Shown here in pieces: positions 857 to 55,993 of a stretch of DNA of 64,000 nucleotides. How positions within the stretch are numbered: the stretch's first letter is position 1; the number at the start of each line of letters is the position of its first letter. This stretch comes from an uncultured Gammaproteobacteria bacterium (GTDB lineage Bacteria > Patescibacteriota > Patescibacteriia > SG8-24): the NCBI GenBank assembly GCA_964491475.1, contig CAZBFO010000001.1, positions 8,605 to 72,604 on the forward strand, written 5' to 3'. Both the position numbers and the translations under genes were made by a program. Below the pieces are notes generated by a model. That model saw only the letters and a program-made list of their open reading frames with translations, was not told where the DNA came from and did no database searches.

Positions 857-867
857 CCCTTTTGCCA

Positions 868-8192: not shown

Positions 8193-9971
8193 TTGATGCG
8201 GCGGTCACGGCGGCCTGCCGCAATGGTTATGCCAGAAAGCGCAACCGGAAACCCGATGATCGACTTGTTGGTGCAGTCCGGCCGCATCACCGCGGAGCAG
8301 TTTCGCGCCTACGAGGCCGAAGCCGCTGCCGCCGGGAAGCCGGTCGACGTCCTTTTGGTTGAGAAAAAGGTGGTCGACGAGGAGACCATGGCAAAGGCCA
8401 AGGCCGCGCAGCTCGGCCTGTCGTATGTCGATTTACAGGGCAGGGAAATCAAGGCGGAAACGCTGAACCTGATCCCCAAAAACGTCGCCGAAACCAACAA
8501 GGCGGTCCCTTTCGACCGCGACGAGGCGCACGTGAGCATCGGCATCGTCGATCCGCGCGACGCTCGCGCCATGCAGGCCATCGACTTCCTCGCCCAGACC
8601 GTCGGGTTCAGCCCCAAGTACTTCGTGATTTCGACGGCTTCGTTCAACGGCGCGCTCAAGAAGTACGCCACCATCGGCAAGGACGTGGCCGGAGCGCTCG
8701 AGGCGGCCAAAGAGCGCTTCGTCCCCGAAAAGAAGGTGGCGGTATCCGAGGAACGCATCGAGGAGGTCATCAAGGGGGCGCCCGTGTCGCGCATCGTCTC
8801 GGTCATTCTCCGCCACGCCGTCGACGGCGGCGCCTCCGACATTCACATCGAGCCGTTCGGCGAAGAGACTCGCGTCCGCTACCGCGTCGACGGCATGCTC
8901 CGCACCACCCTGACGCTGCCCAAGTACATCCATGCCTCGCTGGTCTCCCGCGTAAAGGTGCTGTCCAACCTCAAGCTGGACGAGACCCGCGTGCCGCAGG
9001 ACGGCCGCATCACCGAGAACTTCAGCGGCAAGGTGATCGACTTCCGCGTTTCCACCATCCCGCTGGCCGAAACCGAAAAGGTGGTGATGCGCATCCTCGA
9101 CACCACCCGCGGCGTGCCGACGCTCGAGCAGCTGGGCTTCCGGCCGCAATTCGTGGAAATCATCAAGCAGGAAGCGCGGAAGCCGCACGGCATCTTCCTC
9201 ATCACCGGTCCGACCGGCTCCGGCAAATCGACCACCTTGCTGACGGTGTTGAGCATGCGCAACGAGGAGGGCGTCAACATTTCCACCCTCGAGGACCCGA
9301 TCGAATACTTCATCAAGGGCGTCAACCAGTCGCAGGTGCGTCCCGAAGTCGGTTACACCTTCGCCAGCGGCCTCCGCGCGATGCTGCGCCAGGACCCGAA
9401 CGTGATCATGGTCGGCGAAATCCGCGACGGCGAGACCGGCGAGCTGGCCATTCACGCCGCGCTCACCGGCCATCTCATCTTCTCGACTCTGCACACTAAC
9501 GACGCCCTGGGCGTGGTGCCTCGCATGGTCGACATGCACGTGGAGCCGTTCCTGCTTTCGGCGACGCTCAACGTGGCCATCGCCCAGCGCCTGGCGCGCA
9601 AGATCTGCGAACGCTGCAAGGCGCCGACGACGCTGCCGCCGGAAATCGAGGAATCAGTCCGGGAGGAAATCGACGCCATCCCGGAAGTCTACAAGACCCA
9701 TCTCGACCTCGCTGCGCCGAAGCTGACGGTCTACAAGGGCATGGGGTGCGTGCGCTGCGGCAATAGCGGCTACATGGGCCGGGTCGCCTGCGCGGAGATG
9801 ATCGTCTACGATGAGGAGCTCCGCCTGCTGATTACCAAGGGTTTTCCCTCGGAGCAGGTCAAGAAAGAGCTGGTCAAGCAGAATGCCATCACCTTGCGCC
9901 AGGACGCTCTCTTGAAGGCTTTGGAGGGTTCAACTACAATTGAGGAAGTCATGCGGATTACCGCCGAATAA
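8193..9971 (+). CDS. pilB: Type IV pilus assembly ATPase PilB (GspE family)
   Basis: N-terminal GSPII_E-N-like domain, Walker A GPTGSGKSTT, Asp/His boxes, and the tetracysteine motif CERC...CVRCGNSGY. The start could be an internal Met (MIDLL...). Confidence 0.9.
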   Translation: MMRRSRRPAAMVMPESATGNPMIDLLVQSGRITAEQFRAYEAEAAAAGKPVDVLLVEKKVVDEETMAKAKAAQLGLSYVDLQGREIKAETLNLIPKNVAETNKAVPFDRDEAHVSIGIVDPRDARAMQAIDFLAQTVGFSPKYFVISTASFNGALKKYATIGKDVAGALEAAKERFVPEKKVAVSEERIEEVIKGAPVSRIVSVILRHAVDGGASDIHIEPFGEETRVRYRVDGMLRTTLTLPKYIHASLVSRVKVLSNLKLDETRVPQDGRITENFSGKVIDFRVSTIPLAETEKVVMRILDTTRGVPTLEQLGFRPQFVEIIKQEARKPHGIFLITGPTGSGKSTTLLTVLSMRNEEGVNISTLEDPIEYFIKGVNQSQVRPEVGYTFASGLRAMLRQDPNVIMVGEIRDGETGELAIHAALTGHLIFSTLHTNDALGVVPRMVDMHVEPFLLSATLNVAIAQRLARKICERCKAPTTLPPEIEESVREEIDAIPEVYKTHLDLAAPKLTVYKGMGCVRCGNSGYMGRVACAEMIVYDEELRLLITKGFPSEQVKKELVKQNAITLRQDALLKALEGSTTIEEVMRITAE

Positions 9972-10411: not shown

Positions 10412-11617
10412 ATGCCACGATTTGAATATCACGCGCGGGACCCCAAAGGTCAGGCCGTCGAGGGCTTGGTCGAAGCCGACACCCTGGACATCGCCACCGA
10501 GACCCTTAAAGACAAGGGTCTCTTCGTGCTCTCCATCGATATCCACAAGGAGTCGGTGACCCAGTATGAGATTCCGTGGCTGAACCGCGTCGGTGCCAAG
10601 GATTTGGTGATCTTTTCCCGCCAGTTCTCGGTGCTGATGGGCGCGAAGGTGCCCTTGGTGCAGGCGTTAAGGACCACTGCGCGGCAGACGCAGCATAAGA
10701 GCCTGCAACGGATCATCTTGGACATCGCGTCCGACGTCGAGGCGGGAACCTCGATGTCCGTGGCCATGGCCAAGCACCCGCAGGCCTTCAGCTCGTTCTT
10801 CATCAACATGATCCGTTCGGGCGAGACCACCGGCAAGCTCGAGGAAATCATGAACTACCTGGCAGACCAGATGGAACGCGACTTCGACCTGATGACCAAG
10901 ATCAAGGGCGCGATGACCTACCCCATCTTCGTCATCGTCGCCATGACCGTGGTCGGCTTCGTCATGATGGTGTACGTGGTCCCCAAGCTGACCGCCACCC
11001 TGACCGAGTCGGGCACCGCCTTGCCGTGGACCACGAAAGCGCTGATTGCCGTGAGCGGTTTCATGCAGTCGCACGTGATTCAGATCGTCATCGGCGCGGT
11101 GCTGTTCGCCGCAGCTTTCCGTTGGTGGACTTCCACGCCCGGAGGTCGCGCCTTGTGGGATCGCATCAAATTGCGTGCCCCGGTGTTCGGCCCGCTGCTG
11201 CGCAACATCTACGTCGTGCGCTTCACCCGTTCGATGTCGACGCTGCTGTCCGGCGGCGTGGACGTGCCGCAGAGCCTGGACATCGCCGCGGACATCGTCG
11301 GCAACGAGTACTTCCGGCAGATCATCATGGAAACCCGCAAGGAGGTGTCGGACGGCAATTCGATCACGAGCGTCTTCATGAAGAGCAGCATCATGCCGGT
11401 GATGGTGCCGCAGATGATGTCGGTCGGCGAAGAAACCGGCCGTCTGTCCGAAGTGCTGGAACGCCTGACCGGGTTTTATTCTCGCGAGCTCTCCAACAGC
11501 GTCGCCAACCTGGTATCGGCCATAGAGCCGCTGATCATGCTGGCGATGGGCGGTGCGGTAGGCATCATGGTGTCCGCCATCATGCTGCCCATGTACAACA
11601 TGGCCAGCAACATGTGA
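10412..11617 (+). CDS. pilC: Type IV pilus inner-membrane platform protein PilC (GspF family)
   Basis: Two GspF repeats, three TM segments, and a typical N-terminus (FEYHARDPKGQAVEGLVEADTLDIATETLKDKGLFVLSI). Confidence 0.88.
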   Translation: MPRFEYHARDPKGQAVEGLVEADTLDIATETLKDKGLFVLSIDIHKESVTQYEIPWLNRVGAKDLVIFSRQFSVLMGAKVPLVQALRTTARQTQHKSLQRIILDIASDVEAGTSMSVAMAKHPQAFSSFFINMIRSGETTGKLEEIMNYLADQMERDFDLMTKIKGAMTYPIFVIVAMTVVGFVMMVYVVPKLTATLTESGTALPWTTKALIAVSGFMQSHVIQIVIGAVLFAAAFRWWTSTPGGRALWDRIKLRAPVFGPLLRNIYVVRFTRSMSTLLSGGVDVPQSLDIAADIVGNEYFRQIIMETRKEVSDGNSITSVFMKSSIMPVMVPQMMSVGEETGRLSEVLERLTGFYSRELSNSVANLVSAIEPLIMLAMGGAVGIMVSAIMLPMYNMASNM

Positions 11618-33556: not shown

Positions 33557-35773
33557 TCATTCACTGTCGATGCGCAGGAGGCGGTAGGGGTCGATGTGAC
33601 CTTGCTCGTCGCCGACTTCGGTCATGCCTTCGTGCGCCAAGTTGGCGATGTCGATGGCCATTAAGAGCGGGTGGTCGGGTATGATCTTCCTGATGGCCTC
33701 GCGGAGTTCCGCCAGATCCTTTGGCCGTGAGGCGGTATCAAAGAGGTAGTGCCTGTTGTCGAGCAGCTCGGGATGCCGGGCCAGGCTTTCCTGGTAGACG
33801 TACGCGGGCATCAGCACTTTTCCTTTGGTCTTGCCGTAGAGGAGATAGCCGTCACGGTCCACCCGTTTGCCGTTGTCCTCGCCCTTATAGAAATAATTCA
33901 TGTTCGGCATGACGACCGTCTTGTCGTCCGGCATGTCGCGGATGACCTCGGCGACTTTCTCGAAGTCGCCGAGAGACACGTCGCTGATGTCGACGGTTCG
34001 CCGCCCTTCTCCCGAAAGAATCGCGCGCAGGTCGTCAGCGTCCACCTCTCCCGTGTACTTGGTGTTGTCCTTGCCGAGTTCCAATTTGATGCTGGGAAGG
34101 TCTGCGTTTCCCTTCGTTTCGGCGCTAAAGCCGCGGAGGAAGGCTTCGGAAAGGCGCCCTTGCTGGCCCATCGCCACGGTGATGCTGCGATTGCGGTTTC
34201 GCAGCGCCTGGCTTACGGCCTCGGGTCGCCAATTCTCCATCGTGCCATAATTCACGCGCCAGGCTCTTCTGCCCTCGGCGCTGTCGGGGAGAGGCTCGTC
34301 GAAGACGGCAACGGTCTCGGGCGACGGGGCATCCAGGTCTCTCGCGTCCACGGAGACGGAGTTTTTGGACCTCGCTCCCGTCCACGGATCGACCCTCTCC
34401 AGCCGCGGCGCGCTCTGCAGGCGAAGTCGGGCGCCGGCAGGATCGACGTCGACAAGAATCTCGATCTCCGTCACCTGGCCTTCCAGTTTCTTCTCCTGCT
34501 CTCGGGAAACGGCGATTTGGGCGGCGATTTGCTCGTCGGTCATCTTTTCCGGCTCCAGCCCCTCGCGCTTTGCCTCCTGCATGACGAATTCCGACCCCTT
34601 CAGTTTTCCCACAACCCTGACGTTCAGCTTGGCCGGTTCGTCTGTGACGACGTCGATGTCCGCGCTGTTTTTCACTTCGCCGGGGTTGCCCGCCGCCTTC
34701 GCTTCGACGGGCTTGCTGCTGACCAGCGCCTTCTTGACCTCGGTCATCGGCAACGTCACCGTGCCGGGTTCTGCCTCGGTGCCTGCCCACTTTCTGGTGT
34801 TGCCGCCCTCGAGGATGTAGAGCGCATCGCGATTGCCGTTGTCGTCGAGGTGCTCGACCGCCGCCATTTCGTGCTGCTTCACCATTTGCGTCGCCGGCCG
34901 CCAATGGACGCGCTTCTCCGGCGGCAGGTGCGCCAGCACGCCTTCCATCACGATGCCCTGCGCGCGTGAGATGGCCACGCAGTTCCTGTCGCCGCCGTTG
35001 AAGTAGCGCGTGGTCGAGGCTTGCTCCCACTTGTACGACGAGTCAGGTCCGTACATTTCCGTGCTGATGCGCTTGATCTCGTCGGCGGTCAGGTCGTCGC
35101 CGACTTCTGACGAATACTTGGCGATCATCTCGTCGGCGCGTTTCTCGGCAGACTCCACTTCGGCTGCCGGTATGCCGCCGAGTTTTTCCAAATCAAACTG
35201 CATCCGCTTGAGCGAGGGCGGTTCTCCGCCCTCCAGACGCTTGGCGGCCTCGGTTTTGTAAGCCTCGCGTGCCGCCGCGTCGACGTTTTTTCCCCGCTCG
35301 GCGACCCTGGCGCTGACCTGCGCCTGCTGCTCCTTGCTCTGCGGGTGCAGCACCATGTGCTCCTTCTCCCAGGTATTCTTTACGGATTCGGCAATGGCGT
35401 GGCCGGCGGACTCAATGGCGTTTCCGACGCGCTCGTTCAACGGCAAATGCAGCGCACCGGCCACCAATAGCGGCTTGGCCAACGGGTGCCGAGCAAGCCT
35501 TTTGAGCAGGCTTTGCTTCGGTTCCGTCACCGTGTTTTCCTGGATGCGTTTCTTGGAGGCTTCGCTGACGTCGCCTAGCGCTTCTTCGATTTTTTGAACG
35601 GCGGAATCAGCTTCGGCCTGCCTGGCGGCCTGCTGGGTGTCGATCGCTTCGATTTGAGCCGCAATATCTTCCGCAGACAACTGTTCTTGGGCTGACTCCG
35701 AATCCTGCGGCTGCTTGGGCACCTCGCTCTTTTCGGCTGGCGTTGGCGGAAGCTCTCTTTTCTTGGGGAACAT
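33557..35773 (-). CDS. Large hypothetical protein (738 aa), coiled-coil/charged N-terminus
   Basis: Long uninterrupted minus-strand ORF in a region otherwise coded on +. The ATG at 35773 (MFPKKRELPP) is preferred. No catalytic motif recognised. Confidence 0.55.
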   Translation of the reverse strand: MFPKKRELPPTPAEKSEVPKQPQDSESAQEQLSAEDIAAQIEAIDTQQAARQAEADSAVQKIEEALGDVSEASKKRIQENTVTEPKQSLLKRLARHPLAKPLLVAGALHLPLNERVGNAIESAGHAIAESVKNTWEKEHMVLHPQSKEQQAQVSARVAERGKNVDAAAREAYKTEAAKRLEGGEPPSLKRMQFDLEKLGGIPAAEVESAEKRADEMIAKYSSEVGDDLTADEIKRISTEMYGPDSSYKWEQASTTRYFNGGDRNCVAISRAQGIVMEGVLAHLPPEKRVHWRPATQMVKQHEMAAVEHLDDNGNRDALYILEGGNTRKWAGTEAEPGTVTLPMTEVKKALVSSKPVEAKAAGNPGEVKNSADIDVVTDEPAKLNVRVVGKLKGSEFVMQEAKREGLEPEKMTDEQIAAQIAVSREQEKKLEGQVTEIEILVDVDPAGARLRLQSAPRLERVDPWTGARSKNSVSVDARDLDAPSPETVAVFDEPLPDSAEGRRAWRVNYGTMENWRPEAVSQALRNRNRSITVAMGQQGRLSEAFLRGFSAETKGNADLPSIKLELGKDNTKYTGEVDADDLRAILSGEGRRTVDISDVSLGDFEKVAEVIRDMPDDKTVVMPNMNYFYKGEDNGKRVDRDGYLLYGKTKGKVLMPAYVYQESLARHPELLDNRHYLFDTASRPKDLAELREAIRKIIPDHPLLMAIDIANLAHEGMTEVGDEQGHIDPYRLLRIDSE

Positions 35774-35879
35774 ACGCGAAAATACTATCACGTGCGCTTT
35801 TATGATGGAGATGGTCTGTGGATAACCGGGCATTTTCGAACGATGTTTGTGCGAAGACGGTCCAATGCCGTCTTTTTTG

Positions 35880-42964: not shown

Positions 42965-44581
42965 ATGAGCGTGCACATTCATCGTTTCCCGTGGGGTTTC
43001 GGCGAAGACGCGCAGGTATGGATCGTGCAGTTCGGTTCCAAATCGACGCCGCTCATCGCGCAGTTGTGCCGCGAAGTGACGCTGCGCAGCCGCATCGTTT
43101 CGTGGCAGGCGTTTCCGGAAGCGTGGCGTACCAAGTCAGCGACGCCGCGGCTGGTCATCCTGTCCGGCGGCGACCAAAGCGTCACCGATGCGGATGCGCC
43201 CAGTCTGCCGAAAGAGCTGTACCTTCAACTCGTGCGGGAGACGGTAGTGCTCGGCATCTGCTACGGCGCGCAGCTGTTGGCTCATTTTGGCGGCGGCGCG
43301 GTCCGCCGGGCAGAAAAGCCCGAGTTCGGCACCGTGAACGTCACGAGCAAGCCGTTCGGCAACTATTCCGGAGGTCAGGCGGTGATGAATCACCGCGATG
43401 AAATCGTGACGCTCCCCAAGTTCTGGGAGAGAATCGCCTCGACCGAGCGTTGCGCCAACGCCCTTTGCGGAGACCGCAACGTCTGGGCCGTGCAGTTCCA
43501 TCCCGAGATGGACCACACCGAGAACGGAGAGGCGATCCTGAATCACCTCGCTTTCGACATCGCACGGTGCCAGTCCGACTACGACTTCGACCCGAACGAG
43601 TACGTCGCGCGGTGCGGACAGTGGCTGACCGAAGTGGCGCCGCGGGGCGACGTGCTCTGCGGCCTGTCCGGCGGCGTCGATTCCGCAGTGGCCATGACGA
43701 TCGCGCGGCAGCCGCTGCGACGGCGGCTGCGCGGCATCTTCATCGATACCGGCTGGATGCGCGAAGGGGAGCTGGAAGAGGTCCGCTCCGTCTTCGGAGA
43801 CAAAGGCGTGGCCTACGAGCGCGCGGGCGAGGCATTCTACGATGCCGTCGAAGCCGTACCGTACCCGGAGGGCGGTACCGCCTCCGAAAACGAGTACCGC
43901 TACTACGACGCGGTGCGCAAGACCATCGGCCAGAAGTTCATCGACCAGTTCCTTGCCACCGCAAAACGGCTGTCACTGCGGCCGTCGGCGCTGATCCAGG
44001 GCACCAACGCCGCCGACATCGTCGAATCGGAGACCGGACTGAAGGCTCACCACAACGTCGGCGGGCTGCCGGCACGACTGGGCGTGGACATCGTCGAGCC
44101 GCTGGCCGGACTGTTCAAGTTCGAAATCCGCAAACTGGCGCGTGCGCTCGGCTTGCCCGAGAGCATCGCCGCGCGCCAGCCTTTTCCCGGCCCCGGTTTG
44201 GCCGTGCGTTCCTGGGGCAAGCTGACGCGCCAAGACGCGCCGCCTCTGGCTCGCGCCAACCGCATTCTGGAAGAGGTGATATGCCGGCATTGTCACCCGG
44301 CTCTTCGTCCAAGCCAGTACTATGTGGCCCTCGCCAAGTTTCCGAGCACCGGCATCATGGGCGACGCGCGGGTCATCGGCTATTCTTGGGTCGTCCGCAT
44401 GGTCACCTCGCGGCAACGTGAAAGCTACAGCACGCTCGGCGTCTTTCGTCCCAGCCCGGAGTGCCTCGACGAGCTGGCGCATCGGCTGACGACGGAAGTC
44501 ACCATGCCCGACGGCACCCCGTTCGTTCGCGTCTTCTACGAGATCACCGGCAAGCCTCCGTCGACGACGGAGCCGCACTAA
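42965..44581 (+). CDS. guaA: GMP synthase (glutamine-hydrolysing)
   Basis: ATG after AAGGAGG. GATase (GICYGAQLL, VQFHPE). PP-loop SGGVDSAVA. HHNVGGLP. C-terminus ...FYEITGKPPSTTEPH is like the GuaA dimerisation domain. Confidence 0.88.
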   Translation: MSVHIHRFPWGFGEDAQVWIVQFGSKSTPLIAQLCREVTLRSRIVSWQAFPEAWRTKSATPRLVILSGGDQSVTDADAPSLPKELYLQLVRETVVLGICYGAQLLAHFGGGAVRRAEKPEFGTVNVTSKPFGNYSGGQAVMNHRDEIVTLPKFWERIASTERCANALCGDRNVWAVQFHPEMDHTENGEAILNHLAFDIARCQSDYDFDPNEYVARCGQWLTEVAPRGDVLCGLSGGVDSAVAMTIARQPLRRRLRGIFIDTGWMREGELEEVRSVFGDKGVAYERAGEAFYDAVEAVPYPEGGTASENEYRYYDAVRKTIGQKFIDQFLATAKRLSLRPSALIQGTNAADIVESETGLKAHHNVGGLPARLGVDIVEPLAGLFKFEIRKLARALGLPESIAARQPFPGPGLAVRSWGKLTRQDAPPLARANRILEEVICRHCHPALRPSQYYVALAKFPSTGIMGDARVIGYSWVVRMVTSRQRESYSTLGVFRPSPECLDELAHRLTTEVTMPDGTPFVRVFYEITGKPPSTTEPH

Positions 44582-44582
44582 A

Positions 44583-44622
44583 AGGCGCTAGCCCCCCGAC
44601 GTACGTCGGGGGGCCTTTTTTG
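44583..44622 (+). terminator. Rho-independent terminator after guaA
   Basis: GCCCCCCGACGTACGTCGGGGGGC + TTTTTT. Confidence 0.6.
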
Positions 44623-44640
44623 TGGCCCGCTGTCTTAATC

Positions 44641-44668
44641 TTGCATATTTTTAGAAGATTGCTACACT
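44641..44668 (+). promoter_or_regulatory. Sigma70-like promoter (TTGCAT-16nt-TGCTACACT) for the intron-containing tRNA
   Basis: -35 TTGCAT at 44641-44646. Extended -10 TGCTACACT at 44660-44668. About 24 nt upstream of the mature tRNA 5' end. Confidence 0.45.
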
Positions 44669-44698
44669 GTGGACACCTCAAATCAGAGAGGCCCATAT

Positions 44699-45037
44699 TC
44701 CGAGGTAGCTCAGTTGGTAGAGCAGAGGACTGTCAAACTGACATGGCCTGCAAAGGTCAAAGCGGACCCGTCGCGCGAGCGGCGGTCAGGCAGCGCCCCG
44801 CGGTAACGCGAGGATGTAAAACTGGGTGAATTCGGCGAACGTTGTCCAACCAACGCCGAGCCAAGCCTCGCCACAAGCGAGGAAGGTGTAGAGACTATCC
44901 CGCAAGGGAGTAGGGGTCCGAGCAATCGGACTTCGAAGCGCCCGGCCCCGCCGGCAACAGCCGGAGGGTGATGACATAGTCCAGTAGTCAGAACTGTAAT
45001 CCTTTGGTCCTGGGTTCGAGTCCCAGCCTCGGAGCCA
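44699..45037 (+). tRNA. tRNA interrupted by a group I intron in the anticodon loop (mature 76 nt; Asn(GUU) favoured, Asp(GUC) possible)
   Basis: 5' half TCCGAGG-TA-GCTC-AGTTGGTA-GAGC-A-GAGGA-CTGT.. and 3' half ..TAA-TCCTT-TGGTC-CTGGG-TTCGAGT-CCCAG-CCTCGGA-G-CCA. The acceptor, D, anticodon and T stems pair perfectly across a roughly 263-nt insert. Confidence 0.8.
44734..44996 (+). ncRNA. Group I self-splicing intron (approximate boundaries)
   Basis: The intron core contains an R-like GUAGAGACUA (44888-44897) and an S-like GACAUAGUCC (44973-44982) able to form P7. Under the boundary choice used here, the intron ends in G (omegaG 44996) and the 5' exon ends in U. The terminal CUGAC...GUCAG can pair. 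The exact junction is ambiguous by up to 3 nt. Confidence 0.65.
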
Positions 45038-45043
45038 TGAAAG

Positions 45044-45082
45044 ACGCGCGTCATTTTGACGGGCGTTTTTCATTTGTGTCGC
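45044..45082 (+). terminator. Terminator after tRNA
   Basis: GACGCGCGTC/CGCGTCATTTTGACGGGCG hairpin region followed by TTTTTCATTT. Confidence 0.4.
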
Positions 45083-45240
45083 GCCAACCTTTTCAGGTTC
45101 GAACGGGACGCTCTCCGCACCGACTGAAGACGTTTTAATCGCGCTAAGGGAGGCACGTAAATTACTGTTATCGCCGCGTGCGCCTGTGAAGATTCATTTC
45201 GCCGGATAGACAAATTGACTAATTCTCCTAAGATGACAGC

Positions 45241-45813
45241 ATGGAACCCCTGAAAACAGGTCCCGATACAAAAATAATTGCCTTCATGCTTGCAATCGGC
45301 AACGCACGTCAATCGTATATTTTGGCGCGCCTTGGTTTATTGGAGGCCTTATTTGTGCCCTCATGTTTGTTGGCGCAGCAGAGTTTAGAATACTGCATCA
45401 AGGCCACTGCCAGAATATATTGGCATGAGATTGAAAGCAGGACTGGGAAAAAGATTGATAGGTTTTTGGAAGGTCATCACCTGGTCTCCTTGATGAGGCG
45501 AGCAGCGCCTTATGTGCCCCAGTACAATGCGATTCTTAATGACCACACTAAAAAAGAATTTTTGAAAGAACTGTCCGAAGTCTATAGATCTTCTCGTTTT
45601 GGAGAGACCGGTCTTAGCATCGATGGTCAGAAGAGCATAGGACTCCTTGACGATCTGTTCGCGACCTTGTTTCAAATTTATCGAGACTGCCTGAAGTTTC
45701 CGAAATACAAGCTCTTTGTCCCAAAAAATCTGCAAACTGCATTTTTATTTGGAAATGCAAATTTTAAAACCGAGGATATATCACACAATATTCTTGAAAC
45801 ACTCGGCTCATAG
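45241..45813 (+). CDS. Hypothetical protein encoded in low-GC islet
   Basis: 190-aa ORF in AT-rich DNA (the rest of the window is about 65% GC). No recognisable motif. Confidence 0.45.
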   Translation: MEPLKTGPDTKIIAFMLAIGNARQSYILARLGLLEALFVPSCLLAQQSLEYCIKATARIYWHEIESRTGKKIDRFLEGHHLVSLMRRAAPYVPQYNAILNDHTKKEFLKELSEVYRSSRFGETGLSIDGQKSIGLLDDLFATLFQIYRDCLKFPKYKLFVPKNLQTAFLFGNANFKTEDISHNILETLGS

Positions 45814-45965
45814 ACAGCCGAGCGCTGCCTTTGGTTTCCTTGGAAACACAACAAAAACCGCAAGAACAAAAGCTCGCGGCTACACTCTACGAATATTATA
45901 TTCTTGAAATCGAAACGACAGGCTCTTTGTCACCCGCTAGGCTTACACTTGAGCCTGTGGTCAAG

Positions 45966-46163
45966 ATGTGGTACACTGTTATCGATTATATAAGGCCATA
46001 TCTTATGCTCAAGCAGCTTAAAAAGAAGCCAATTAGCCATAAGCTCTTAATCACAGCTATTTCGCGATCTTCAAAGATTGAGGGTCTGAGTTTGAGTCGG
46101 GCGCTAAAGAATACTTCAGTTATTAAGAAACTTAGAGTGCATGGGCGAGCCTTCTCGTTATAA
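45966..46163 (+). CDS. Putative FicA/VbhA-like antitoxin (small protein with S-x-x-x-E-G inhibitory motif)
   Basis: The ORF is open from 45831. The internal start at 45966 gives about 65 aa. Contains SSKIEG, matching the [S/T]xxxE[G/N] Fic-inhibitory motif. Overlaps the Fic gene start by 23 nt. Confidence 0.4.
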   Translation: MWYTVIDYIRPYLMLKQLKKKPISHKLLITAISRSSKIEGLSLSRALKNTSVIKKLRVHGRAFSL

Positions 46164-46731
46164 GGTAAGTGACGATGATGCCGGCGTTGAAGGTGGAATT
46201 CTGATAAACAAATTGGGAATTAAGAATCAGAGAGACTTGGACGATGCCGAGACGTTGCTTGTTGCAGATTCGTATAAACATTTTTTTGAAGAGCTGGCGC
46301 AGGGAAAGATTACCTTTGATCTCTCCTTGCTTTTTGTAATCCATGCGTATTGCTTTGAGACACTGTATGCATGGGCTGGCAAAGTCCGGACCATTGACTT
46401 GTCCAAGGACGGGGTACTGTTTGCGAGTGCGCAATTTCTACCGGCAACCATAGGGGAGCTAAGAAACATTGTGACAGACAATTTCCCCCGAGGTTCTGAT
46501 TCTAAACGAACGATCGCCGAGAAACTCGCGCTGATCCACAATGAAATCAACATCGTACACCCCTTCAGAGAGGGGAACGGTCGAACCCTGCGTTTATTTA
46601 TTGATTTAATTGTAAACAGCCTAGATTTGCCCGCCGTGAACTGGGATGTTCCGAATTACCTCGACGAATGCAAGAAGGGCATAACGGGCGATAATTCGGG
46701 TATTGAGAAAATTATTCACGACAGCATCTGA
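46141..46731 (+). CDS. Fic/Doc-family protein (FicT-like AMPylation toxin)
   Basis: Canonical Fic active-site motif HPFREGNGRTLR, i.e. HPFx[DE]GNGRxxR. About 196 aa. There is no internal inhibitory helix motif. Confidence 0.85.
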   Translation: MGEPSRYKVSDDDAGVEGGILINKLGIKNQRDLDDAETLLVADSYKHFFEELAQGKITFDLSLLFVIHAYCFETLYAWAGKVRTIDLSKDGVLFASAQFLPATIGELRNIVTDNFPRGSDSKRTIAEKLALIHNEINIVHPFREGNGRTLRLFIDLIVNSLDLPAVNWDVPNYLDECKKGITGDNSGIEKIIHDSI

Positions 46732-46806
46732 GGATAAGGTCGTCGTCATTAAGTCATTGTGGGCAAAGAGGTCGAATAAAAAGCCCCGCTGCTATCATCC
46801 ACGCAT

Positions 46807-47256
46807 ATGCTTACCATCATCCTCCTTTCGCTCGGCGGCGCGGTCATCGCGGCAATTGTCGGCACGTTCTGGTATTCGAACGCCACTCCTATGGGGCGGC
46901 TGCACATGCGCTATCTCGGATTCGACAAGCTCACGGAGGCAGAGAAGAAGGCCAAGATGCAAGAGGGCAAGGCGATGATGGGCAAGATGTACGCCTCGCA
47001 GCTCGCGCTTTCCTTCCTCACCGCTTTCGCCACGGTCTTCATCGTGACCATGAGCATGCGCAACGGCCTGTCTTTCGGCGCTGCGCTCGGGTTCGTGGTA
47101 CTGAACTGGCTGTGCTTCGTCGTGCCGACTATCGGCCAGTCGATCCTTTGGGGCAACTGCGATCCGAAGATCGCCAAGATGAAGTTCGTTTCGGACAGCC
47201 TGTCGAACCTGGTGACGCTGCTTCTGGTCGCCGCGCTCGCCAGCGCGTTCGTCTAG
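46807..47256 (+). CDS. Small multi-TM membrane protein (DUF1761-like)
   Basis: Four hydrophobic helices. GC content returns to the genomic level. Followed by a hairpin+T-run terminator at about 47286-47325. Confidence 0.5.
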   Translation: MLTIILLSLGGAVIAAIVGTFWYSNATPMGRLHMRYLGFDKLTEAEKKAKMQEGKAMMGKMYASQLALSFLTAFATVFIVTMSMRNGLSFGAALGFVVLNWLCFVVPTIGQSILWGNCDPKIAKMKFVSDSLSNLVTLLLVAALASAFV

Positions 47257-47439
47257 GCCTTGGACTTGCCCGCTTGTCCGGAAAAGAGCAGGCCAGCAAA
47301 TTGGCCGGCTCTTTTTGAAAGCACGCGACGACATTTTTGTCCGGTCGGTTTTTTATCGAAACTGTAGTATTCTTTGCGGGATATGGTCGGTGCGGATATG
47401 TCGCCCGTTCCGACGGCATTCTCACGACCCGTTACGCCT

Positions 47440-47862
47440 ATGGCCGAACTAAGAATCCAACCCACCAAGAACTCCGTCGTCGCATTCCTCAAGACCGTCG
47501 AGCCTGCAGGCAAGCGCAAAGACGCGCTGACGCTCCTCGCGCTTTTCAAGAAGATCACCGGCCAGAAGCCGGTGCTGTGGGGCGCGTCCATCGTCGGTTT
47601 CGGCAGGTTCCGTTACAAGTCCGGCAGCAGCGAAGGGGAGTGGTTCCGCACCGGCTTCTCGCCGCGTAAAGGCAACTTCTCGCTGTACATCCTGGAGTGG
47701 CAGGCAAAGCCGTCGCCGCACCTCAAGAAGCTCGGCAAGTACAAGGCCGGCGGCGGCTGCCTTTACGTCAACAAGCTCGCCGACATCGATTTGAAAGTCC
47801 TGGCGCTTCTCATCAAGGAGTCGAGCAAGCGGAAGCATCGGAACGAAGTGCACGCATCTTGA
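47440..47862 (+). CDS. DUF1801/YdhG-like domain protein
   Basis: ELRIQPTKNSVVAFLKTVEPAGKRKDALTLLALFKKITGQKPVLWGASIVGFGRFRYK matches the DUF1801 pattern. The ATG at 47440 is preferred. Confidence 0.55.
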   Translation: MAELRIQPTKNSVVAFLKTVEPAGKRKDALTLLALFKKITGQKPVLWGASIVGFGRFRYKSGSSEGEWFRTGFSPRKGNFSLYILEWQAKPSPHLKKLGKYKAGGGCLYVNKLADIDLKVLALLIKESSKRKHRNEVHAS

Positions 47863-47874
47863 TCAAAAAAGCCT

Positions 47875-49392
47875 ATGACGTCGACCCGAGCCAGAAAGGA
47901 TTTCTCAAAGACGATGCGCGACGGGTTCGATTGGTTTTTTAATCTCCCTTCCGTGAAGCGGTGGCGTGAGGCGCATCCGACACTGGTCGCCTACGCCGAA
48001 CGACGGCTGTCGCCCCAAGGATTCGCGGGCCTGCCCCTCACTCTTCTTGCCGCCGCTTTTCTGTACACGGTCGTCCTCTTCCTGGGGCTCGTTGAAGACT
48101 ACCTTTCGCACGACCCGCTCATTCTGGCCGACGTGCGTATCGCCAACTTGCTCTTCTACTTTCGCAATGATCATCTTCTGCGATTCTCGTATTTCGTCAC
48201 GTTGCTTGCCGAAGCGGGCGTGATCATCGCGGTCGCTGTCGGGCTTTCCGCGCTCTTTTGGTTTCGACGCCAACGCATCTTCATCGTGACGCTTTGGCTC
48301 ACCTTGATCGTTGCGGAAGGCACGACGTTCGCCGGAAAGCTGGTCTTTCACCGTGCGAGGCCGGACGAGCTTCTCCGCGCAGTGAGCGAAGATTCCTTCT
48401 CGTTTCCGAGCGGGCATGCGACAGGTGCCGCGGCCTTTTACGGCCTTCTTGCCTACCTGTTGCTGCGCTCCGTCAAATCATTGAGAACGAGAATCTCGGT
48501 CGTATTTTCCTTCGCGGTCCTGGTGCTGCTCGTTGACTTCAGCCGCTTGTATCTCGGCGTGCATTACCTAAGCGACGTTTTGGCCGGAAATCTCGTCGGA
48601 TTGGCGAGTTTGCTTTTTGCCGTCGGTCTCACGGAATGGATGATTTCCCGCAATCCGGCCGAGGGGCCAGTGCGCTTCTCGTGGACTGATCTTGGGATGA
48701 CGGCAGTCGGCACGTCCGTCGTCGTTTCGACTTTTTTCTTCGTGATCGCGCGGCTCCCTCCGGCCCATCTTTCGGAAGCAACGCCGAAAAACGTCGGTGA
48801 CGAAGCCGTTTTGGGGCTGTTCGAGAGCGGAGCATTGCCTCGGTATACCGAAACCTTGACCGGTGTAACGCAAGAGCCGGTGAACGTTGTCATCGTCGCG
48901 TCGGAGAAATGCTTCGAGAACGACGTGGCTTCCGGCGGCTGGACCCTGGCCGAAAGCGTTTCACCGTCGTCTGCGGAGCGCATCGCCAAAGCTGCGTTGT
49001 TCAATGACGAATATCCGACGGCACCGATGACCCCGTCGTTTTACCATGCAAAGCCCAACGATTACGGTTTTGAGAAAGAAACGGACAGAAAAAGCGTCCG
49101 GAGCCGCCATCATGCGCGTTTCTGGCGGTCCGGCTACGTGACGCCCCAAGGAGAGCTTTTTGTCGGCACTGCCAGTCTCGACACGGGCCTCAAATGGGGT
49201 ATCACCCACGCCATCGCGCCCGACATCGATACCGAGCGCGACGTCTTCGTCGCCGACATGGAGAAGGCGGGTATCGTGGCGGAAAAGCGGCTCGTCCCCT
49301 TCGTGCAGCCGATTCTCGGTCAAAATTTCGCAAGAGACCCATTCTTCACGAATGGTCAGGCTGCGATTCTGACATTTAAGAAGTGTTTTTGA
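47875..49392 (+). CDS. PAP2-family membrane phosphatase with C-terminal extracytoplasmic domain
   Basis: PAP2 motifs KLVFHRARP, PSGHA and SRLYLGVHYLSDVLAG. About 6 TM segments, then a roughly 230-aa soluble domain. Confidence 0.75.
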   Translation: MTSTRARKDFSKTMRDGFDWFFNLPSVKRWREAHPTLVAYAERRLSPQGFAGLPLTLLAAAFLYTVVLFLGLVEDYLSHDPLILADVRIANLLFYFRNDHLLRFSYFVTLLAEAGVIIAVAVGLSALFWFRRQRIFIVTLWLTLIVAEGTTFAGKLVFHRARPDELLRAVSEDSFSFPSGHATGAAAFYGLLAYLLLRSVKSLRTRISVVFSFAVLVLLVDFSRLYLGVHYLSDVLAGNLVGLASLLFAVGLTEWMISRNPAEGPVRFSWTDLGMTAVGTSVVVSTFFFVIARLPPAHLSEATPKNVGDEAVLGLFESGALPRYTETLTGVTQEPVNVVIVASEKCFENDVASGGWTLAESVSPSSAERIAKAALFNDEYPTAPMTPSFYHAKPNDYGFEKETDRKSVRSRHHARFWRSGYVTPQGELFVGTASLDTGLKWGITHAIAPDIDTERDVFVADMEKAGIVAEKRLVPFVQPILGQNFARDPFFTNGQAAILTFKKCF

Positions 49393-49509
49393 TCGATTTT
49401 GGGAGAACGAACGGCCGCTGACTACGCCGGTGGTTTTGTTTCCGCCCGTGCTTGCCGCGCGCCCATAGTTCACCTACACTACAAGGCGTAATGCACCCTA
49501 TCCCAAGCC

Positions 49510-50796
49510 ATGTCCCAAACCGCACAGCCGACGACGCTCGCCTCGAACGCGGGGAAAATCGCGCAGATGCTCAACAAGGTCCCCGAAGTGACAATCTACT
49601 TTTGGGTCATCAAGGTGCTCTGCACCACGGTCGGCGAAACCGCCTCGGACTTCCTCAACGTCAACTTGAACTTCGGCTTGGTGAAGACTTCCGTGGTGAT
49701 GGGCCTGCTCTTCGCCGTCGCGCTCTTCTTTCAGATGCGCATGAAGAAGTACGTGGCCGGACTGTATTGGGCGACGGTGGTGCTCATCAGCGTGTTCGGC
49801 ACGCTGGTCACCGACAACCTTTCTGACAGCATGCACGTGCCGCTGGAATACAGCACCGTCGCTTTCAGCGCGCTGCTGGCGCTCACTTTCGGCATCTGGT
49901 ACGCGAACGAGAAGACGCTCTCGATGCATTCCATAGTCACGACGCGGCGCGAGAGCTTCTATTGGCTGGCGATTCTCTTCACCTTCGCGCTGGGTACCGC
50001 ATCGGGCGACCTCATGGCCGAGAGCCTCGGTCTCGGCTACGCCACGACCGGTCTCATCATCTGCGGCGTCGTCGCCGCGCTGGCGATCGCCTGGCGCCTG
50101 GGCCTCAACTCGATCCTGTCGTTCTGGCTCATCTACGTGATGACGCGGCCGCTCGGCGCCTCGTTGGGCGACTACCTTTCGCAGCCCGCAAAATACGGCG
50201 GGCTCGGGCTCGGTGCGACGGTCACGAGCGCGGTTTTCGTCGCGGCCATCATCGCGACAGTCGTGTTCCTGACGCTCACGCGACGCGATGTCGTCTCCGC
50301 GTCCGTCGCAAACGCGGAAGCGGAAGAAGAGAAGGCCGAACGGGGAGGGCTGTGGCAGACGGCCGTCGTCCTCGCGATCCTTCTGTTGGCATCCGGCCTC
50401 GGTTATTCCTCCAGGCGTGCCGCGCTGATGGCACCGGCGAATGACGCGCCGAACCCGGGCACGGCCGCAGCGGGCGCAGGTTCGGAAGTGAGCGCAGGCA
50501 AGGACGCCCGCACGCGGCCGCTCGGCGACCTCTCAAGTTTCCGGGCCATCGTGCAGGACTCGCACGACCTGGTCGTCGCAGGCAAGCTGTCCGATGCCAA
50601 GACGCGCATCGCCGACCTTGAATTCGAATGGGACAACGCCGAAGCGCGGCTCAAGCCGATGAACCCGGCAAAATGGACCGAAATGGACGGCGCCATCGAC
50701 CGCGTGTTGCGGGACTTGCGCGCAGTCAATCAGGACGGGGCGGCTTGCAAGGCTTCGCTCGAGAAGCTGCTGTCGGTTATCGAGGGTGATTCGTAG
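49510..50796 (+). CDS. Multi-TM membrane protein with internal duplication (COG4705-like)
   Basis: Repeated motif VIKVLCTTVGETASDFL / LAILFTFALGTASGDLMAESL. C-terminal soluble helical domain. Confidence 0.55.
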   Translation: MSQTAQPTTLASNAGKIAQMLNKVPEVTIYFWVIKVLCTTVGETASDFLNVNLNFGLVKTSVVMGLLFAVALFFQMRMKKYVAGLYWATVVLISVFGTLVTDNLSDSMHVPLEYSTVAFSALLALTFGIWYANEKTLSMHSIVTTRRESFYWLAILFTFALGTASGDLMAESLGLGYATTGLIICGVVAALAIAWRLGLNSILSFWLIYVMTRPLGASLGDYLSQPAKYGGLGLGATVTSAVFVAAIIATVVFLTLTRRDVVSASVANAEAEEEKAERGGLWQTAVVLAILLLASGLGYSSRRAALMAPANDAPNPGTAAAGAGSEVSAGKDARTRPLGDLSSFRAIVQDSHDLVVAGKLSDAKTRIADLEFEWDNAEARLKPMNPAKWTEMDGAIDRVLRDLRAVNQDGAACKASLEKLLSVIEGDS

Positions 50797-54700: not shown

Positions 54701-55993
54701 ATGAAACACCTCCGCAACGCGCTCTTCGCCGTCAGCCTGCTGCTCCTTCCCGGCTGCAGCTTGGGCAGCATCATCTCGTTCAGCTGTTCCTTCATGGACG
54801 ACAGCGAGCATTGCTACCAGAGCGCCGCCGTCCAGAACGCCGACCCGCAGGAATGCGAAAAGGTCACCGGCAAGGATTTCGGCGGCGGGTCCAATCCGCC
54901 GCGCGACAAGTGCTACCTGATGATTGCCGAGAACACCGACAACTATTCGGTTTGCAAGGATATCCAGGGCGGCTTCATGTCGTACACGCAGGAGCAGTGC
55001 GTGACCGACATCGTCAAGAAGAACGGCGACCCCGACGGCTGCAACAACTTGGAAGGCACGGCCGTCGAAACCTGCAAACGGAATTTCGCCGCAACCATCA
55101 CCGCCGACAGCCTGACCGCCGTCAACGAGGAGGTCGAGAAGGCCAAGAGCGAGGCCGGTGCCAACCCCAACGACCCCGACGCGCAGGACAAGCTCAAGAA
55201 GCTGCTGGCCAAGCAGGCGGCGCTGTTCGAGAACGCCCCCGAAGCCGCCAAGAGCGCCTTCATGAAGAGCTCGCGCGAGGCGCTGCTGGCCGACATCGAC
55301 GACGCCGACGTGAAGGCCGAGATCGTGCGGCAGACCTTGGCCGCGCGAGATTCCAGCGGAGGCATGAGCCTGAACGACCAGCTGGCAAAGATGGCGGAAA
55401 TCAAGGAGCAACAGGAAACGGTCAAGCGCCTAGACGAGCAGGCTAACACGCTGATGGACCAGATCAAGTCGGGCGCCACCGACGTGGCCACCGACGCCTT
55501 CAACGAGAAATACGGCGGCGACATCGAGAAGTACAAGGCCGCCATGGCCCAGAAGGGCCGCGAGTACCTGGAGGCCAACGGGGGAGAAAAAGTGAAGAAC
55601 GGCATCGCCCAGCTGGAGAGCCTCAAGGAAAAGTACGACAAGGCTTCCGAGCAATACGAGAAGATTTCCGAACAGATCGACAAGCTGAAGAAGGTCTACG
55701 ACGAAGTCTCCGAGGTGTACGCCAAGGTCGACGAGGTCAACAAGCTGGTCGGCGCGGGCAAGATCGACCCGGGCAAGGCGCAGGCGCTGTACGGCGCCAT
55801 CTACCTGGGCAAGGGGCTCGAGTACGCCACCAAGTACATCCCGGTCTTCGGCAGCACCGCCTCGACCGTCAGCAAGGAAGTGATGAACGCCACCGTGAAG
55901 TTCGCCACCAAGCGGGCAGCGCGCACCACGGCCATCGACAAGTGCATCGACGACCCCGAACATTGCGACCCTAACGGCATTACGCCATACTAG
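54701..55993 (+). CDS. Lipoprotein with Cys-rich N-domain and long coiled-coil
   Basis: MKHLRNALFAVSLLLLPGC lipobox. Six Cys in the first 120 aa, then Lys/Glu/Ala-rich heptad repeats. Confidence 0.55.
   Translation: MKHLRNALFAVSLLLLPGCSLGSIISFSCSFMDDSEHCYQSAAVQNADPQECEKVTGKDFGGGSNPPRDKCYLMIAENTDNYSVCKDIQGGFMSYTQEQCVTDIVKKNGDPDGCNNLEGTAVETCKRNFAATITADSLTAVNEEVEKAKSEAGANPNDPDAQDKLKKLLAKQAALFENAPEAAKSAFMKSSREALLADIDDADVKAEIVRQTLAARDSSGGMSLNDQLAKMAEIKEQQETVKRLDEQANTLMDQIKSGATDVATDAFNEKYGGDIEKYKAAMAQKGREYLEANGGEKVKNGIAQLESLKEKYDKASEQYEKISEQIDKLKKVYDEVSEVYAKVDEVNKLVGAGKIDPGKAQALYGAIYLGKGLEYATKYIPVFGSTASTVSKEVMNATVKFATKRAARTTAIDKCIDDPEHCDPNGITPY

Follow-up and report, generated by a model that had tools for sequence, protein, structure and literature searches.

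An islet of low GC content was located at positions 45038–46806 of a 64,000-nt stretch of DNA (the window) from a GC-rich host, probably a Patescibacterium. It contained a terminator-like hairpin with a T-run (45049–45073) behind a tRNA gene, a solo gene for a 190-aa HEPN-domain protein (45241–45813), a ficA-like gene for a 52-aa antitoxin (46005–46163) and a ficT-like gene for a 196-aa class I Fic protein (46141–46731), all on the + strand. These three were the only ORFs of the segment supported as genes.

Composition of the islet and the adjacent tRNA-Asn gene

A ~1.7-kb AT-rich segment in GC-rich surroundings had been described here in an earlier note on this DNA, and the GC profile was indeed strongly deviant: the islet had a GC content of 0.448, compared with a mean of 0.630 (sd 0.018, minimum 0.572) for all other 1769-nt segments of the 64-kb window (z = −10.1). 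GC3 was 0.455 in the HEPN gene, 0.453 in the small ORF and 0.513 in the Fic gene, compared with 0.69–0.87 in the genes flanking the islet. The left edge was gradual (~45130–45200) and the right edge sharp (~46780–46806), and a core of foreign composition (45150–46790, on neither strand in particular) showed GC values of 0.31–0.53 in 100-nt windows. The right boundary was marked by a DUF1761 gene (46807–47256, + strand, GC3 0.86), the first native gene past the islet and outside it.

Directly upstream of the islet lies the intron-containing tRNA gene that the earlier note had recognized, and its identity can now be given as tRNA-Asn(GUU). It was found by ARAGORN with the -i option (44699–45037, with a 263-nt intron) and missed by ARAGORN at default. 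On the basis of this call and a splice model, the 5′ exon was placed at 44699–44733 (ending in GGACUGU, U35), a group I intron at 44734–44996, interrupting the anticodon loop at position 35/36, and the 3′ exon, with an encoded CCA, at 44997–45037, all on the + strand. In the splice model a U ends the 5′ exon, a G ends the intron, and the spliced tRNA forms a canonical Asn(GUU) cloverleaf. Its U1-A72 pair and discriminator G73 would suit a bacterial tRNA-Asn. The Rfam group I model RF00028 matched 44777–45002 over the full model length at 36.2 bits (E = 2e-6); its gathering score, 50, was not reached. A tRNA-Thr(UGU) call by ARAGORN was rejected, since the intron would then end in C, and this mis-call is documented (PMC13011429). 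A further Rfam match, anti-hemB at 44555–44623, was rejected as the terminator of the guaA-like gene.

Recently, tRNA-Asn genes of Patescibacteria with a group I intron at position 35/36 were described (Nakagawa et al. 2026, PMC13011429). These introns were recognized by a 5′ exon ending in uridine, an intron ending in guanine and a canonical spliced tRNA with anticodon GUU; introns in Patescibacteria were mostly of group IA, and self-splicing in vitro was shown for two other introns (PMC13011429). The present intron resembled them in the tRNA, the insertion site, the misreading by ARAGORN as Thr(UGU) at 33/34, the U at the exon end and the G at the intron end, but differed in its unusually GC-rich host (63%) and in an RF00028 score under the gathering threshold.

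The Fic protein and its antitoxin

The Fic protein matched Pfam Fic (5.4e-14). Its residues 140–151 (H140 to R151, including R148; 46558–46593, + strand) were HPFREGNGRTLR, which carries the AMPylation-competent signature HxFx(D/E)GNGRxxR and was invariant in 32 of 32 homologues. In an AF2 model (pLDDT 88.7) the protein consisted of only seven core helices, the fourth and fifth of which flank the motif. An internal [ST]xxxE[GN] motif was present in none of the Fic homologues of two sets (0/32 and 0/31). A perfect motif and the lack of an internal inhibitory helix, both claimed in the earlier note, were thus borne out for the window protein, and its homologues likewise carried no inhibitory motif of their own. 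An N-terminal S5-R6-Y7 was also invariant in this Fic subfamily.

In a profile search of the PDB the best match was VbhT (E = 9e-33), followed by Fic-1 (8wt0, 4e-27) and EcFicT (5jff, 8e-24). Foldseek with the Fic model likewise gave VbhT as the best match (3shg_A, TM 0.78; Fic-1, TM 0.72). The class III proteins EfFic and NmFic scored similarly to class I in these profile and fold comparisons, in which likeness alone does not discriminate class. Matches to the NCBIfam VbhT, NmFic and EcFic models were all far under the equivalog cut-offs (e.g. PRK10347, with 63 of the required 181 bits); as every such score was below its cut-off, the target is not transferable by orthology. The closest Fic relatives were ≤57% identical, and the few with a source name were mostly called Patescibacteria or Komeilibacteria; eight loci of close relatives had a GC content of 36–53%. 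When genome contigs were scanned with the Fic alignment and the pattern HPFREGNG, the matches listed were distant relatives (27–40% identical), the close subfamily being absent among them. In a simple scan, a motif-bearing ORF lay upstream in 20 of 80 of these distant loci, ~18 of which were plausible antitoxins.

The small ORF upstream of the Fic gene encodes a lysine-rich N-terminus (MLKQLKKK), the motif SSKIEG (S22 to G27, with E26; 46068–46085, + strand), which conforms to the inhibitory-helix consensus [S/T]xxxE[G/N], and a C-terminal HGRAFSL. As judged from homologues of 43–55 aa, its realistic start was the ATG at 46005. The earlier note had claimed that this ORF overlaps the Fic start, and the overlap was found to be 23 nt (46141–46163, + strand), a stretch that is read in one frame as the end of the antitoxin (HGRAFSL*) and in another as the start of the toxin (MGEPSRY). 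The consensus arose by chance in 1% of peptide shuffles, but was invariant in 57 of 57 homologous small ORFs (8 at close loci and 49 at metagenome loci); S22, E26 and G27 were unchanged across 27 distinct antitoxin homologues.

Conservation of the small ORF upstream of Fic homologues was examined in both directions. It was present upstream of the Fic gene in all eight close loci, with overlaps of 8–35 nt (8–53 nt across a wider set of homologous loci). In the reverse test, a search seeded with the antitoxin gave 50 loci, and a Fic gene or its remnant lay directly downstream in 40 of the 43 that had enough downstream sequence. At homologous loci ficT was often found decayed, either frameshifted or truncated, next to a retained antitoxin gene. 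No gene was called at the antitoxin ORF on the source contig, and the exact antitoxin sequence was not found in a collection of 15 billion proteins.

The antitoxin family had no match in the PDB and no Pfam family, and single members gave weak Pfam matches to DUF4172 (E = 0.03) and YhfG (E = 0.016). Alignment with VbhA by hhalign covered 19 columns around the motif, with a probability of 25%, and outside these ~19 residues no likeness to VbhA, YhfG or AntF was detectable. As a positive control, classical FicA sequences matched VbhA at E = 2e-4.

Placement of the inhibitory motif, conserved pairing and the VbhT profile and fold matches all support the VbhT/VbhA-type architecture proposed in the earlier note, and the islet pair is of the class I Fic toxin-antitoxin kind, as defined previously (PMC5033356). 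Like VbhT of Bartonella schoenbuchensis (3SHG, 3ZC7, 3ZCB), the window Fic has the canonical motif and no internal inhibitory helix, and as with VbhA the [S/T]xxxE[G/N] motif is on a small protein encoded just upstream. The window Fic differs from VbhT in its sequence (~26% identity), in having no C-terminal BID secretion domain and in having no link to a plasmid or T4SS. Antitoxins of the window type are shorter than VbhA (about 49–52 aa compared with 62), resemble it only in the ~19 residues around the motif, and combine the lysine-rich N-terminus with a conserved C-terminal [HY]GRAFS that is absent in VbhA; the 23-nt gene overlap is a further listed difference.

A stand-alone Fic of ~200 aa with an antitoxin of ~50 aa is shared with Fic-1/AntF (Pseudomonas bijieensis 2P24, 8WT0), YeFicTA and PaFicTA, in which GyrB is AMPylated (PMC5675462, PMC13327609). 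Fic-1 and the window Fic were only ~21% identical in a structural alignment, and the window antitoxin family had no detectable sequence similarity to AntF. EcFicT/EcFicA (Fic/YhfG, Escherichia coli, 5JFF) has the same class I arrangement, and both Fic proteins have a conserved N-terminal tyrosine (SRY in the window Fic, DPY in EcFicT). Unlike EcFicT, whose motif is degenerate and whose inheritance is vertical (PMC5033356), the window Fic has a complete motif and foreign composition.

The HEPN gene and acquisition of the islet

The 190-aa product of the first gene, listed as unknown in the earlier note, was identified as a HEPN-domain protein by a Pfam HEPN match. The fold resembled those of HepT, AbiV, HepS and Csm6, and the protein is probably defence- or RNA-related. 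Its family was very small. H79 was invariant, and the window protein has R73-x4-H78, with an arginine that was unconserved across 31 family members. HEPN/MNT systems (HepT/MntA; PF05168-type 1WOL, 1UFB and 4NQF) share the Pfam HEPN domain with the window protein. Unlike these systems, the window protein had no adjacent MNT partner (its gene is flanked by the tRNA and ficA, and a nucleotidyltransferase ORF was absent), possessed a C-terminal extension of ~60 residues, and belonged to a family in which the canonical Rx4-6H arginine was not conserved.

The only close HEPN homologue was found at locus L085, where the surrounding patch is low in GC and also carries an NYN nuclease gene and restriction-modification genes of the Dcm/Vsr/MutH type. 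Of two further HEPN family contexts, one lacked Fic and the other lay on a contig too short for a judgement. Among the loci compared, the HEPN gene matched only L085, and ficA-ficT matched only Fic loci, at both DNA and protein level. The HEPN gene and the Fic pair are thus independently distributed units: similarity to other loci was confined to coding sequences and fell on separate loci for each, and the Fic pair has no conserved partner in the HEPN protein.

No integrase or recombinase gene was present among the ORFs of 45038–46806. A partial repeat of the tRNA 3′ end was sought, and no second copy at ≤3 mismatches was found in the whole 64-kb window; direct and inverted repeats over 44600–50600 gave chance-level short matches only. 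These searches agree with the earlier note, in which neither an integrase nor an att repeat was seen. In blastn comparison of 45000–46850 with 58 related loci no conserved island ends were found, similarity lying inside coding sequences only. The sole non-coding exception was the tRNA 3′ end in locus L104, where the last 32 nt of the tRNA-Asn 3′ exon were 90.6% identical to an intron-less tRNA-Asn followed by ficA-ficT. A tRNA within ~200 nt occurred at ~3 of 58 module loci, near the expectation for these small genomes, and tRNA proximity was therefore rejected as a general property of the module. The islet is thus linked to a tRNA by position and deviates in composition, but has neither integrase nor att repeat.

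On plasmids and phages no Fic relative was closer than ~36% identity, and no match to the HEPN protein was found in phages; a phage or plasmid origin was rejected on these grounds. The closest guaA relatives (L090 and L091, 60–64% identical) were non-syntenic, without a nearby tRNA. No close relative showed an empty site, so it is from composition alone that we infer an insertion. The islet may be a degenerate island or may have arrived by another route, the two options named in the earlier note. Very probably, then, this is a small horizontally acquired islet with a class I Fic toxin-antitoxin operon and an independent solo HEPN gene.

Predicted action and alternative readings

By analogy with the systems above, the 52-aa antitoxin would supply the inhibitory helix to FicT. 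A Glu-R2 salt bridge is known from class I systems (PMC5033356), and Glu26 of FicA (S22xxxE26G27) is predicted to contact Arg151, the last arginine of HPFREGNGRTLR, in the same way, so that productive ATP binding would be blocked. The 23-nt overlap would couple translation of antitoxin and toxin. On depletion of the antitoxin, the FicT-like enzyme would AMPylate an essential target, leading to growth arrest. FicT toxins AMPylate gyrase and topoisomerase IV (PMC5675462), and AMPylation of GyrB/ParE or antitoxin-reversible toxicity is known for VbhT, BtrFicT, YeFicT, PaFicT and Fic-1 (PMC5675462, PMC13327609). GyrB/ParE would be the most likely targets here because of the analogy with VbhT, YeFicT, PaFicT and Fic-1, and the residue modified would be the ATP-lid tyrosine (Tyr109 in E. 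coli GyrB numbering). The Fic-1-AntF complex, in which AntF is a 47-residue two-helix protein, is a deAMPylase (PMC13327609), and a FicT-FicA complex may likewise reverse the modification.

An anti-phage abortive-infection or defence islet formed by the Fic pair, maybe with HEPN, rather than a plain addiction module, is a tentative alternative that we hold to be rather unlikely, and one compatible with the toxin-antitoxin reading. The PADLOC candidate family PDC-S04 matched FicT over its full length (E = 1.3e-42), and SoFic is also a PADLOC family, but PDC-S04 is an unvalidated family that showed no defence activity in one direct assay. The restriction-modification and NYN nuclease genes around the sole close HEPN homologue, and the likeness of the HEPN fold to HepT, AbiV, HepS and Csm6, would fit defence, as would the presence of HicAB, SIR2 or additional Fic genes next to some other FicTA loci. 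Many FicTA loci of the subfamily, however, lie among housekeeping genes (recA, efp, hflX and hisS), and a phage-sensing component was not evident in the islet.

It is improbable that the Fic protein is a regulated AMPylase/deAMPylase, or an enzyme for another substrate, with a physiological role rather than a growth-arresting toxin. Such a role has been proposed for the EcFicT-like subfamily. EcFicT/EcFicA provides the precedent, being a class I pair with no demonstrable AMPylation or toxicity (PMC5033356), and S5-R6-Y7 could be an autoregulatory N-terminal-lock tyrosine like the DPY of EcFicT. However, EcFicT has Leu for the first motif arginine, whereas the window Fic keeps R148, R151 and the full signature. 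The patchy distribution, the foreign composition and the decayed toxins with antitoxin kept form the pattern of a mobile toxin-antitoxin pair and not that of a housekeeping enzyme passed on vertically.

MNT antitoxins AMPylate HepT toxins. HEPN, FicA and FicT might by comparison form one three-component system, the Fic AMPylase modifying and so neutralizing HEPN, or acting on its RNA-related pathway, and such a system would be run by a Fic-fold instead of an MNT-fold enzyme, on one low-GC mobile cassette in GC-rich Patescibacteria. We regard this as very improbable. The three genes lie on the same strand with similar GC3 (0.45–0.51) and no predicted + strand terminator between HEPN and ficA, but a gap of 190 nt separates HEPN from ficA, and a HEPN homologue was found by tblastn in none of 57 other FicTA loci. 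The close HEPN homologue at L085 does lie 1.1 kb from another Fic gene; this Fic, however, is another protein, 351 aa long and encoded in the opposite orientation with host-like GC, and a 38%-identical HEPN relative follows secA with no Fic nearby.

Least credible is a reading of the low-GC patch as a chimera of the assembly or as an ancestral region whose AT-richness reflects functional constraint, and it can hardly be right. The source contig is metagenome-derived, no empty-site relative is at hand, and the order tRNA-Asn, ficA-ficT at L104 in another genome could mean an old linkage, but a separately built Logan contig from a second assembly (L001) was identical over 44703–49378 (4676/4676 nt) and spanned both junctions, GC3, which is largely free of protein constraint, fell by 0.3–0.4 exactly at gene boundaries, and L104 belongs to a genome of 43% GC whose module matches its own composition and shares with the islet, the tRNA end apart, no DNA similarity outside coding sequences.

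The horizontally acquired islet would be a clear case of genes transferred recently into a genome that is unusually rich in GC and probably patescibacterial. A distinct subfamily of FicA-type antitoxins was identified with it, which has no Pfam family and was missed by gene callers at several loci, including the source contig; it is tightly paired with a Fic subfamily in ~57 metagenomic or genomic loci besides the window, of which the named sources are mostly Patescibacteria. The toxin-antitoxin biology of these bacteria with tiny genomes has apparently received little attention in print: no paper combining Patescibacteria, toxin-antitoxin and Fic turned up in a full-text literature search. 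The biology of the pair is of a well-known type with a mechanism well established elsewhere; the finding refines annotation and leaves that understanding unchanged. Should gyrase be the target, as it is for related toxins, the pair would serve in that phylum as a compact tool and as a marker for mobile DNA.

Composition of the low-GC islet and its flanking tRNA

Mean GC of the window was 62–63%, and the sole 1-kb bins below 0.57 lay within 45001–47000 (0.453 and 0.476). GC of the islet (45038–46806) was 0.448, against 0.630 ± 0.018 (minimum 0.572) across the remaining segments of equal length (z = −10.1). Third-position GC (GC3) also fell, to 0.455 in the 190-aa HEPN ORF (45241–45813, + strand), 0.453 in the small ORF ficA (46005–46163, +) and 0.513 in ficT (46141–46731, +), against 0.81 in the guaA-like gene upstream, 0.86 in DUF1761 directly downstream and 0.69–0.87 in the remaining neighbours, indicating that the drop was not an amino-acid effect. 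Thus, the AT-rich segment on a GC-rich background described in an earlier note from the sequence alone was borne out both by sliding GC and by the third codon positions of all three ORFs. The left edge was gradual (~45130–45200) and the right edge sharp (~46780–46806). Run SRR12313480 yielded a separately assembled Logan contig, possibly from the same reads as the window contig, that was identical to 44703–49378 over 4676/4676 nt with both islet junctions inside; this argues against a chimeric join. In the 3 kb after the islet (47001–50000) GC was slightly low (0.574–0.584), and the PAP2-LssY_C gene (47875–49392) had a GC3 of 0.69 versus 0.80–0.87 in its neighbours; this region may have been acquired earlier and since ameliorated in part.

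The tRNA at 44699–45037 (+) was not reported by default ARAGORN. With intron search it was detected with a 263-nt intron and called Thr(UGU), insertion 33/34, and the Rfam group I intron model RF00028 matched 44777–45002 end to end (E = 2e-6; 36.2 bits, below the gathering score of 50). The Thr(UGU) 33/34 call was rejected, as the intron would then end in C. On moving the boundaries two bases, the 5′ exon ended in U, the intron (44734–44996, at 35/36) ended in G and the spliced product was a canonical tRNA-Asn(GUU) cloverleaf. Its U1-A72 pair and discriminator G73 likewise suit a bacterial tRNA-Asn. Group I introns at 35/36 of tRNA-Asn, enriched in Patescibacteria, were described by Nakagawa et al. 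2026 (PMC13011429), who showed self-splicing in vitro and reported that standard annotation tools overlook such genes or, in the case of ARAGORN, mis-call them as Thr(UGU) 33/34. The window tRNA shares the tRNA, the site and the artefact with these, so the intron-containing tRNA of the earlier note is real and of an already known kind. A weak Rfam “anti-hemB” match at 44555–44623 (+; 20 bits, E = 0.5) was accounted for by the guaA-like gene’s strong intrinsic terminator (a stem at 44591–44614 plus T-run).

The few named relatives of the guaA-like protein were mostly “Patescibacteria group bacterium” (54–58% identical) or Sungbacteria, with one Entotheonellaceae; the nearest relative (64% identical) was on a 60% GC contig. 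With these relatives, and with the 35/36 intron, which fits the phylum, the evidence points to a probably patescibacterial host of unusually high GC. Also counted towards this were the type IV pilus PilB/PilC-type genes of the window (8193–9971 and 10412–11617) and its large ORFs, among them ORFs of 1422, 758 and 430 aa (820–5088, +; 33557–35833, −; 54701–55993, +) without any Pfam match at E ≤ 1e-5.

The Fic protein and its predicted upstream antitoxin

FicT (196 aa) matched Pfam Fic (E = 5.4e-14) and contained the full AMPylation-competent signature, H140-P-F-R-E-G-N-G-R-T-L-R151. An internal [ST]xxxE[GN] was absent from its homologues (0/32 and 0/31 in two sets), in agreement with the claim of an intact FIC motif and no inhibitory motif of its own. 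Invariant in a 32-sequence alignment were M1, S5-R6-Y7, a W-A-G-x-x-R segment and the FIC motif. NCBIfam matches to VbhT (81 bits), NmFic and E. coli Fic were all far under equivalog cut-offs, indicating that FicT is an orthologue of none of them. Searching PDB with the FicT-family profile gave VbhT as best match (E = 9e-33), followed by Enterococcus Fic, Fic-1 (8wt0), EcFicT and NmFic; an AlphaFold model (pLDDT 88.7; seven helices, with the FIC motif between helices 4 and 5) was closest to VbhT (3shg_A, TM 0.78). Among 5.8 billion protein clusters the sole identical sequence was its own record, the next relatives being ≤57% identical, and the few named ones were mostly Patescibacteria or Komeilibacteria.

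The inhibitory motif SSKIEG was encoded at 46068–46085, in a frame ending at 46163. Because homologues were 43–55 aa with an M-K-K-like start, FicA almost certainly starts at ATG 46005, giving a predicted 52-aa peptide, MLKQLKKKPISHKLLITAISRSSKIEGLSLSRALKNTSVIKKLRVHGRAFSL. This exact peptide was absent from a 15-billion-protein collection, and ficA was uncalled in the source’s Logan contig; gene callers also missed it in three of the loci compared with the window (L003, L004 and L089). By chance the motif arose in 1% of shuffles of the peptide.

The claim that the small ORF is conserved upstream of Fic homologues was examined from both sides. Starting from Fic, an SS[KR]xEG...[HY]GRAF[ST]x ORF was found upstream in 8/8 loci (the window, L002, L003, L005 and L086–L089; Fic 40–57% identical), overlapping it by 8–35 nt. 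Starting from a 5-sequence antitoxin alignment, a metagenome scan gave 50 loci, 43 of them with at least 600 nt downstream; a Fic ORF with H.F.[DE]GNGR..R followed in 37, a frameshifted or truncated Fic in 3 and none in 3, so that 40/43 had Fic or its remnant, and the claim held. S22, E26, G27 and L43 were invariant in 27 distinct antitoxins. Intact antitoxins accompanied frameshifted or truncated Fic in metagenomic loci L092, L100, L101, L115, L128, L140 and L141 (in the last two the Fic alignment ended after residue 112), and L112, L121 and L124 had orphan antitoxins without Fic. This suggests Fic decay with antitoxin retention, although some cases may be assembly errors, and matches the way in which mobile toxin-antitoxin modules typically decay.

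Neither the FicA peptide nor the 27-sequence profile matched any PDB chain; a control profile of 13 classical FicA-type peptides, taken from upstream of distant Fic homologues, found VbhA (E = 2e-4). In Pfam, only single members gave hints of YhfG (E = 0.016) and DUF4172 (E = 0.03), the latter being the inhibitory domain at the N-terminus of class II Fic proteins. Profile–profile comparison with the classical set aligned only 19 columns around A-x-S-x-x-x-E-G (probability 25%); judged by sequence, the inhibitory segment therefore appears to be common to both, the remainder being that of a distinct subfamily, marked by a lysine-rich N-terminus and then A-K-K-N-x-x-x-I-x-x-L-K-x-[HY]-G-R-A-F-S. 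In size FicA resembled AntF, a 47-residue two-helix bundle (PMC13327609).

The two genes overlapped by 23 nt (46141–46163) in different frames, and this stretch (29, 35 or 53 nt in relatives) encoded both the antitoxin C-terminus [HY]GRAFS and the toxin N-terminus M-x-E-x-S-R-Y. As the same bases encode both, the conserved antitoxin C-terminus and the invariant S-R-Y may constrain each other. By analogy, the tyrosine of S-R-Y could act as does that of the DPY motif in EcFicT, for which an “N-terminal lock” has been proposed (PMC5033356).

Further Fic genes, different from ficT, lay just upstream of FicA-FicT in L087 (1455–2537, Fic_N+Fic) and L003 (2717–3703, RhuM+Fic), both loci being related to the named patescibacterial Fic sequences; in L087 there was also a tyrosine recombinase, 2.7 kb upstream.

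The HEPN gene and possible routes of acquisition

The earlier note had listed a 190-aa unknown protein. The ORF was present; “unknown” did not stand. A single-sequence search gave a weak Pfam HEPN match (E = 0.003), and an exhaustive HMMER search of 1.84 billion proteins gave a small family of 57 representatives, of which all aligned members (31/31) matched HEPN (best E = 1.7e-14). Its sole close homologue (L085, 5752–6321; 61% identical over 189 aa) was intact at 190 aa but under-called as 106 aa; on a contig of 62% GC it occupied a patch of 43–50% GC, with genes for NYN, Vsr, a Dcm methylase and a MutH-like endonuclease as neighbours. There, a 351-aa Fic gene lay 1.1 kb away on the opposite strand. 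Every other FicTA locus compared lacked a HEPN homologue, and a 38%-identical family member followed secA with no Fic nearby; we therefore regard HEPN as cargo in its own right, distinct from the Fic pair and probably linked to defence or RNA.

As noted earlier, the interval 45038–46806 contained no integrase. The tRNA 3′ end did not recur anywhere in the window with up to 3 mismatches, and searches for direct and inverted repeats across 44600–50600 yielded nothing above chance. The islet had no non-coding similarity to the related loci compared, and no close relative with an empty site was found among the guaA-like relatives in searchable data. A tRNA lay beside the FicTA module in ~3/58 loci, near expectation, so tRNA adjacency does not characterise the module in general. 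In L104 (FLOH01000012.1, 976 kb, 43% GC; 2266–3227), an intron-less tRNA-Asn(GUU), with acceptor, D and T arms in common with the window tRNA, preceded ficA-ficT, from which a terminator and an AT-rich spacer of 150 nt separated it; the pair lay on the same (3′) side as in the window. These arrangements are compatible with the 3′ flank of tRNA-Asn as a recurrent landing site, and with the conserved tRNA as a homology anchor for recombination.

Predicted action of the pair

In class I Fic proteins the inhibitory helix comes from a small upstream-encoded antitoxin, whose glutamate salt-bridges the last FIC-motif arginine (PMC5033356). With its FIC motif, no internal inhibitory motif and a separate upstream SSKIEG ORF, the FicA-FicT pair agrees at the level of sequence with this definition in every respect, as had been proposed. 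FicA Glu26 would lock FicT Arg151, the gene overlap would couple translation of both, and free FicT would AMPylate its target and stop growth. Because VbhT, BtrFicT, YeFicT, PaFicT and Fic-1 modify GyrB and/or ParE (PMC5675462, PMC13327609), gyrase/topoisomerase IV is the leading candidate target, tentatively so, at ~20–30% identity of FicT to characterised toxins, by analogy and not orthology. A defence role of FicA-FicT is possible, given the match of FicT to PADLOC candidate family PDC-S04 (E = 1.3e-42); that family is unvalidated, however, and one gene tested directly had no defence activity. Such a role would not conflict with a toxin-antitoxin function.

What the earlier note observed and how it read this are both sound: the islet is compositionally foreign DNA with a class I Fic toxin-antitoxin pair, holds a solo HEPN gene and adjoins a tRNA-Asn whose group I intron is of a type described before. 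Nothing in it would surprise a specialist, the systems being of known kinds, with an antitoxin subfamily that is divergent and often uncalled.
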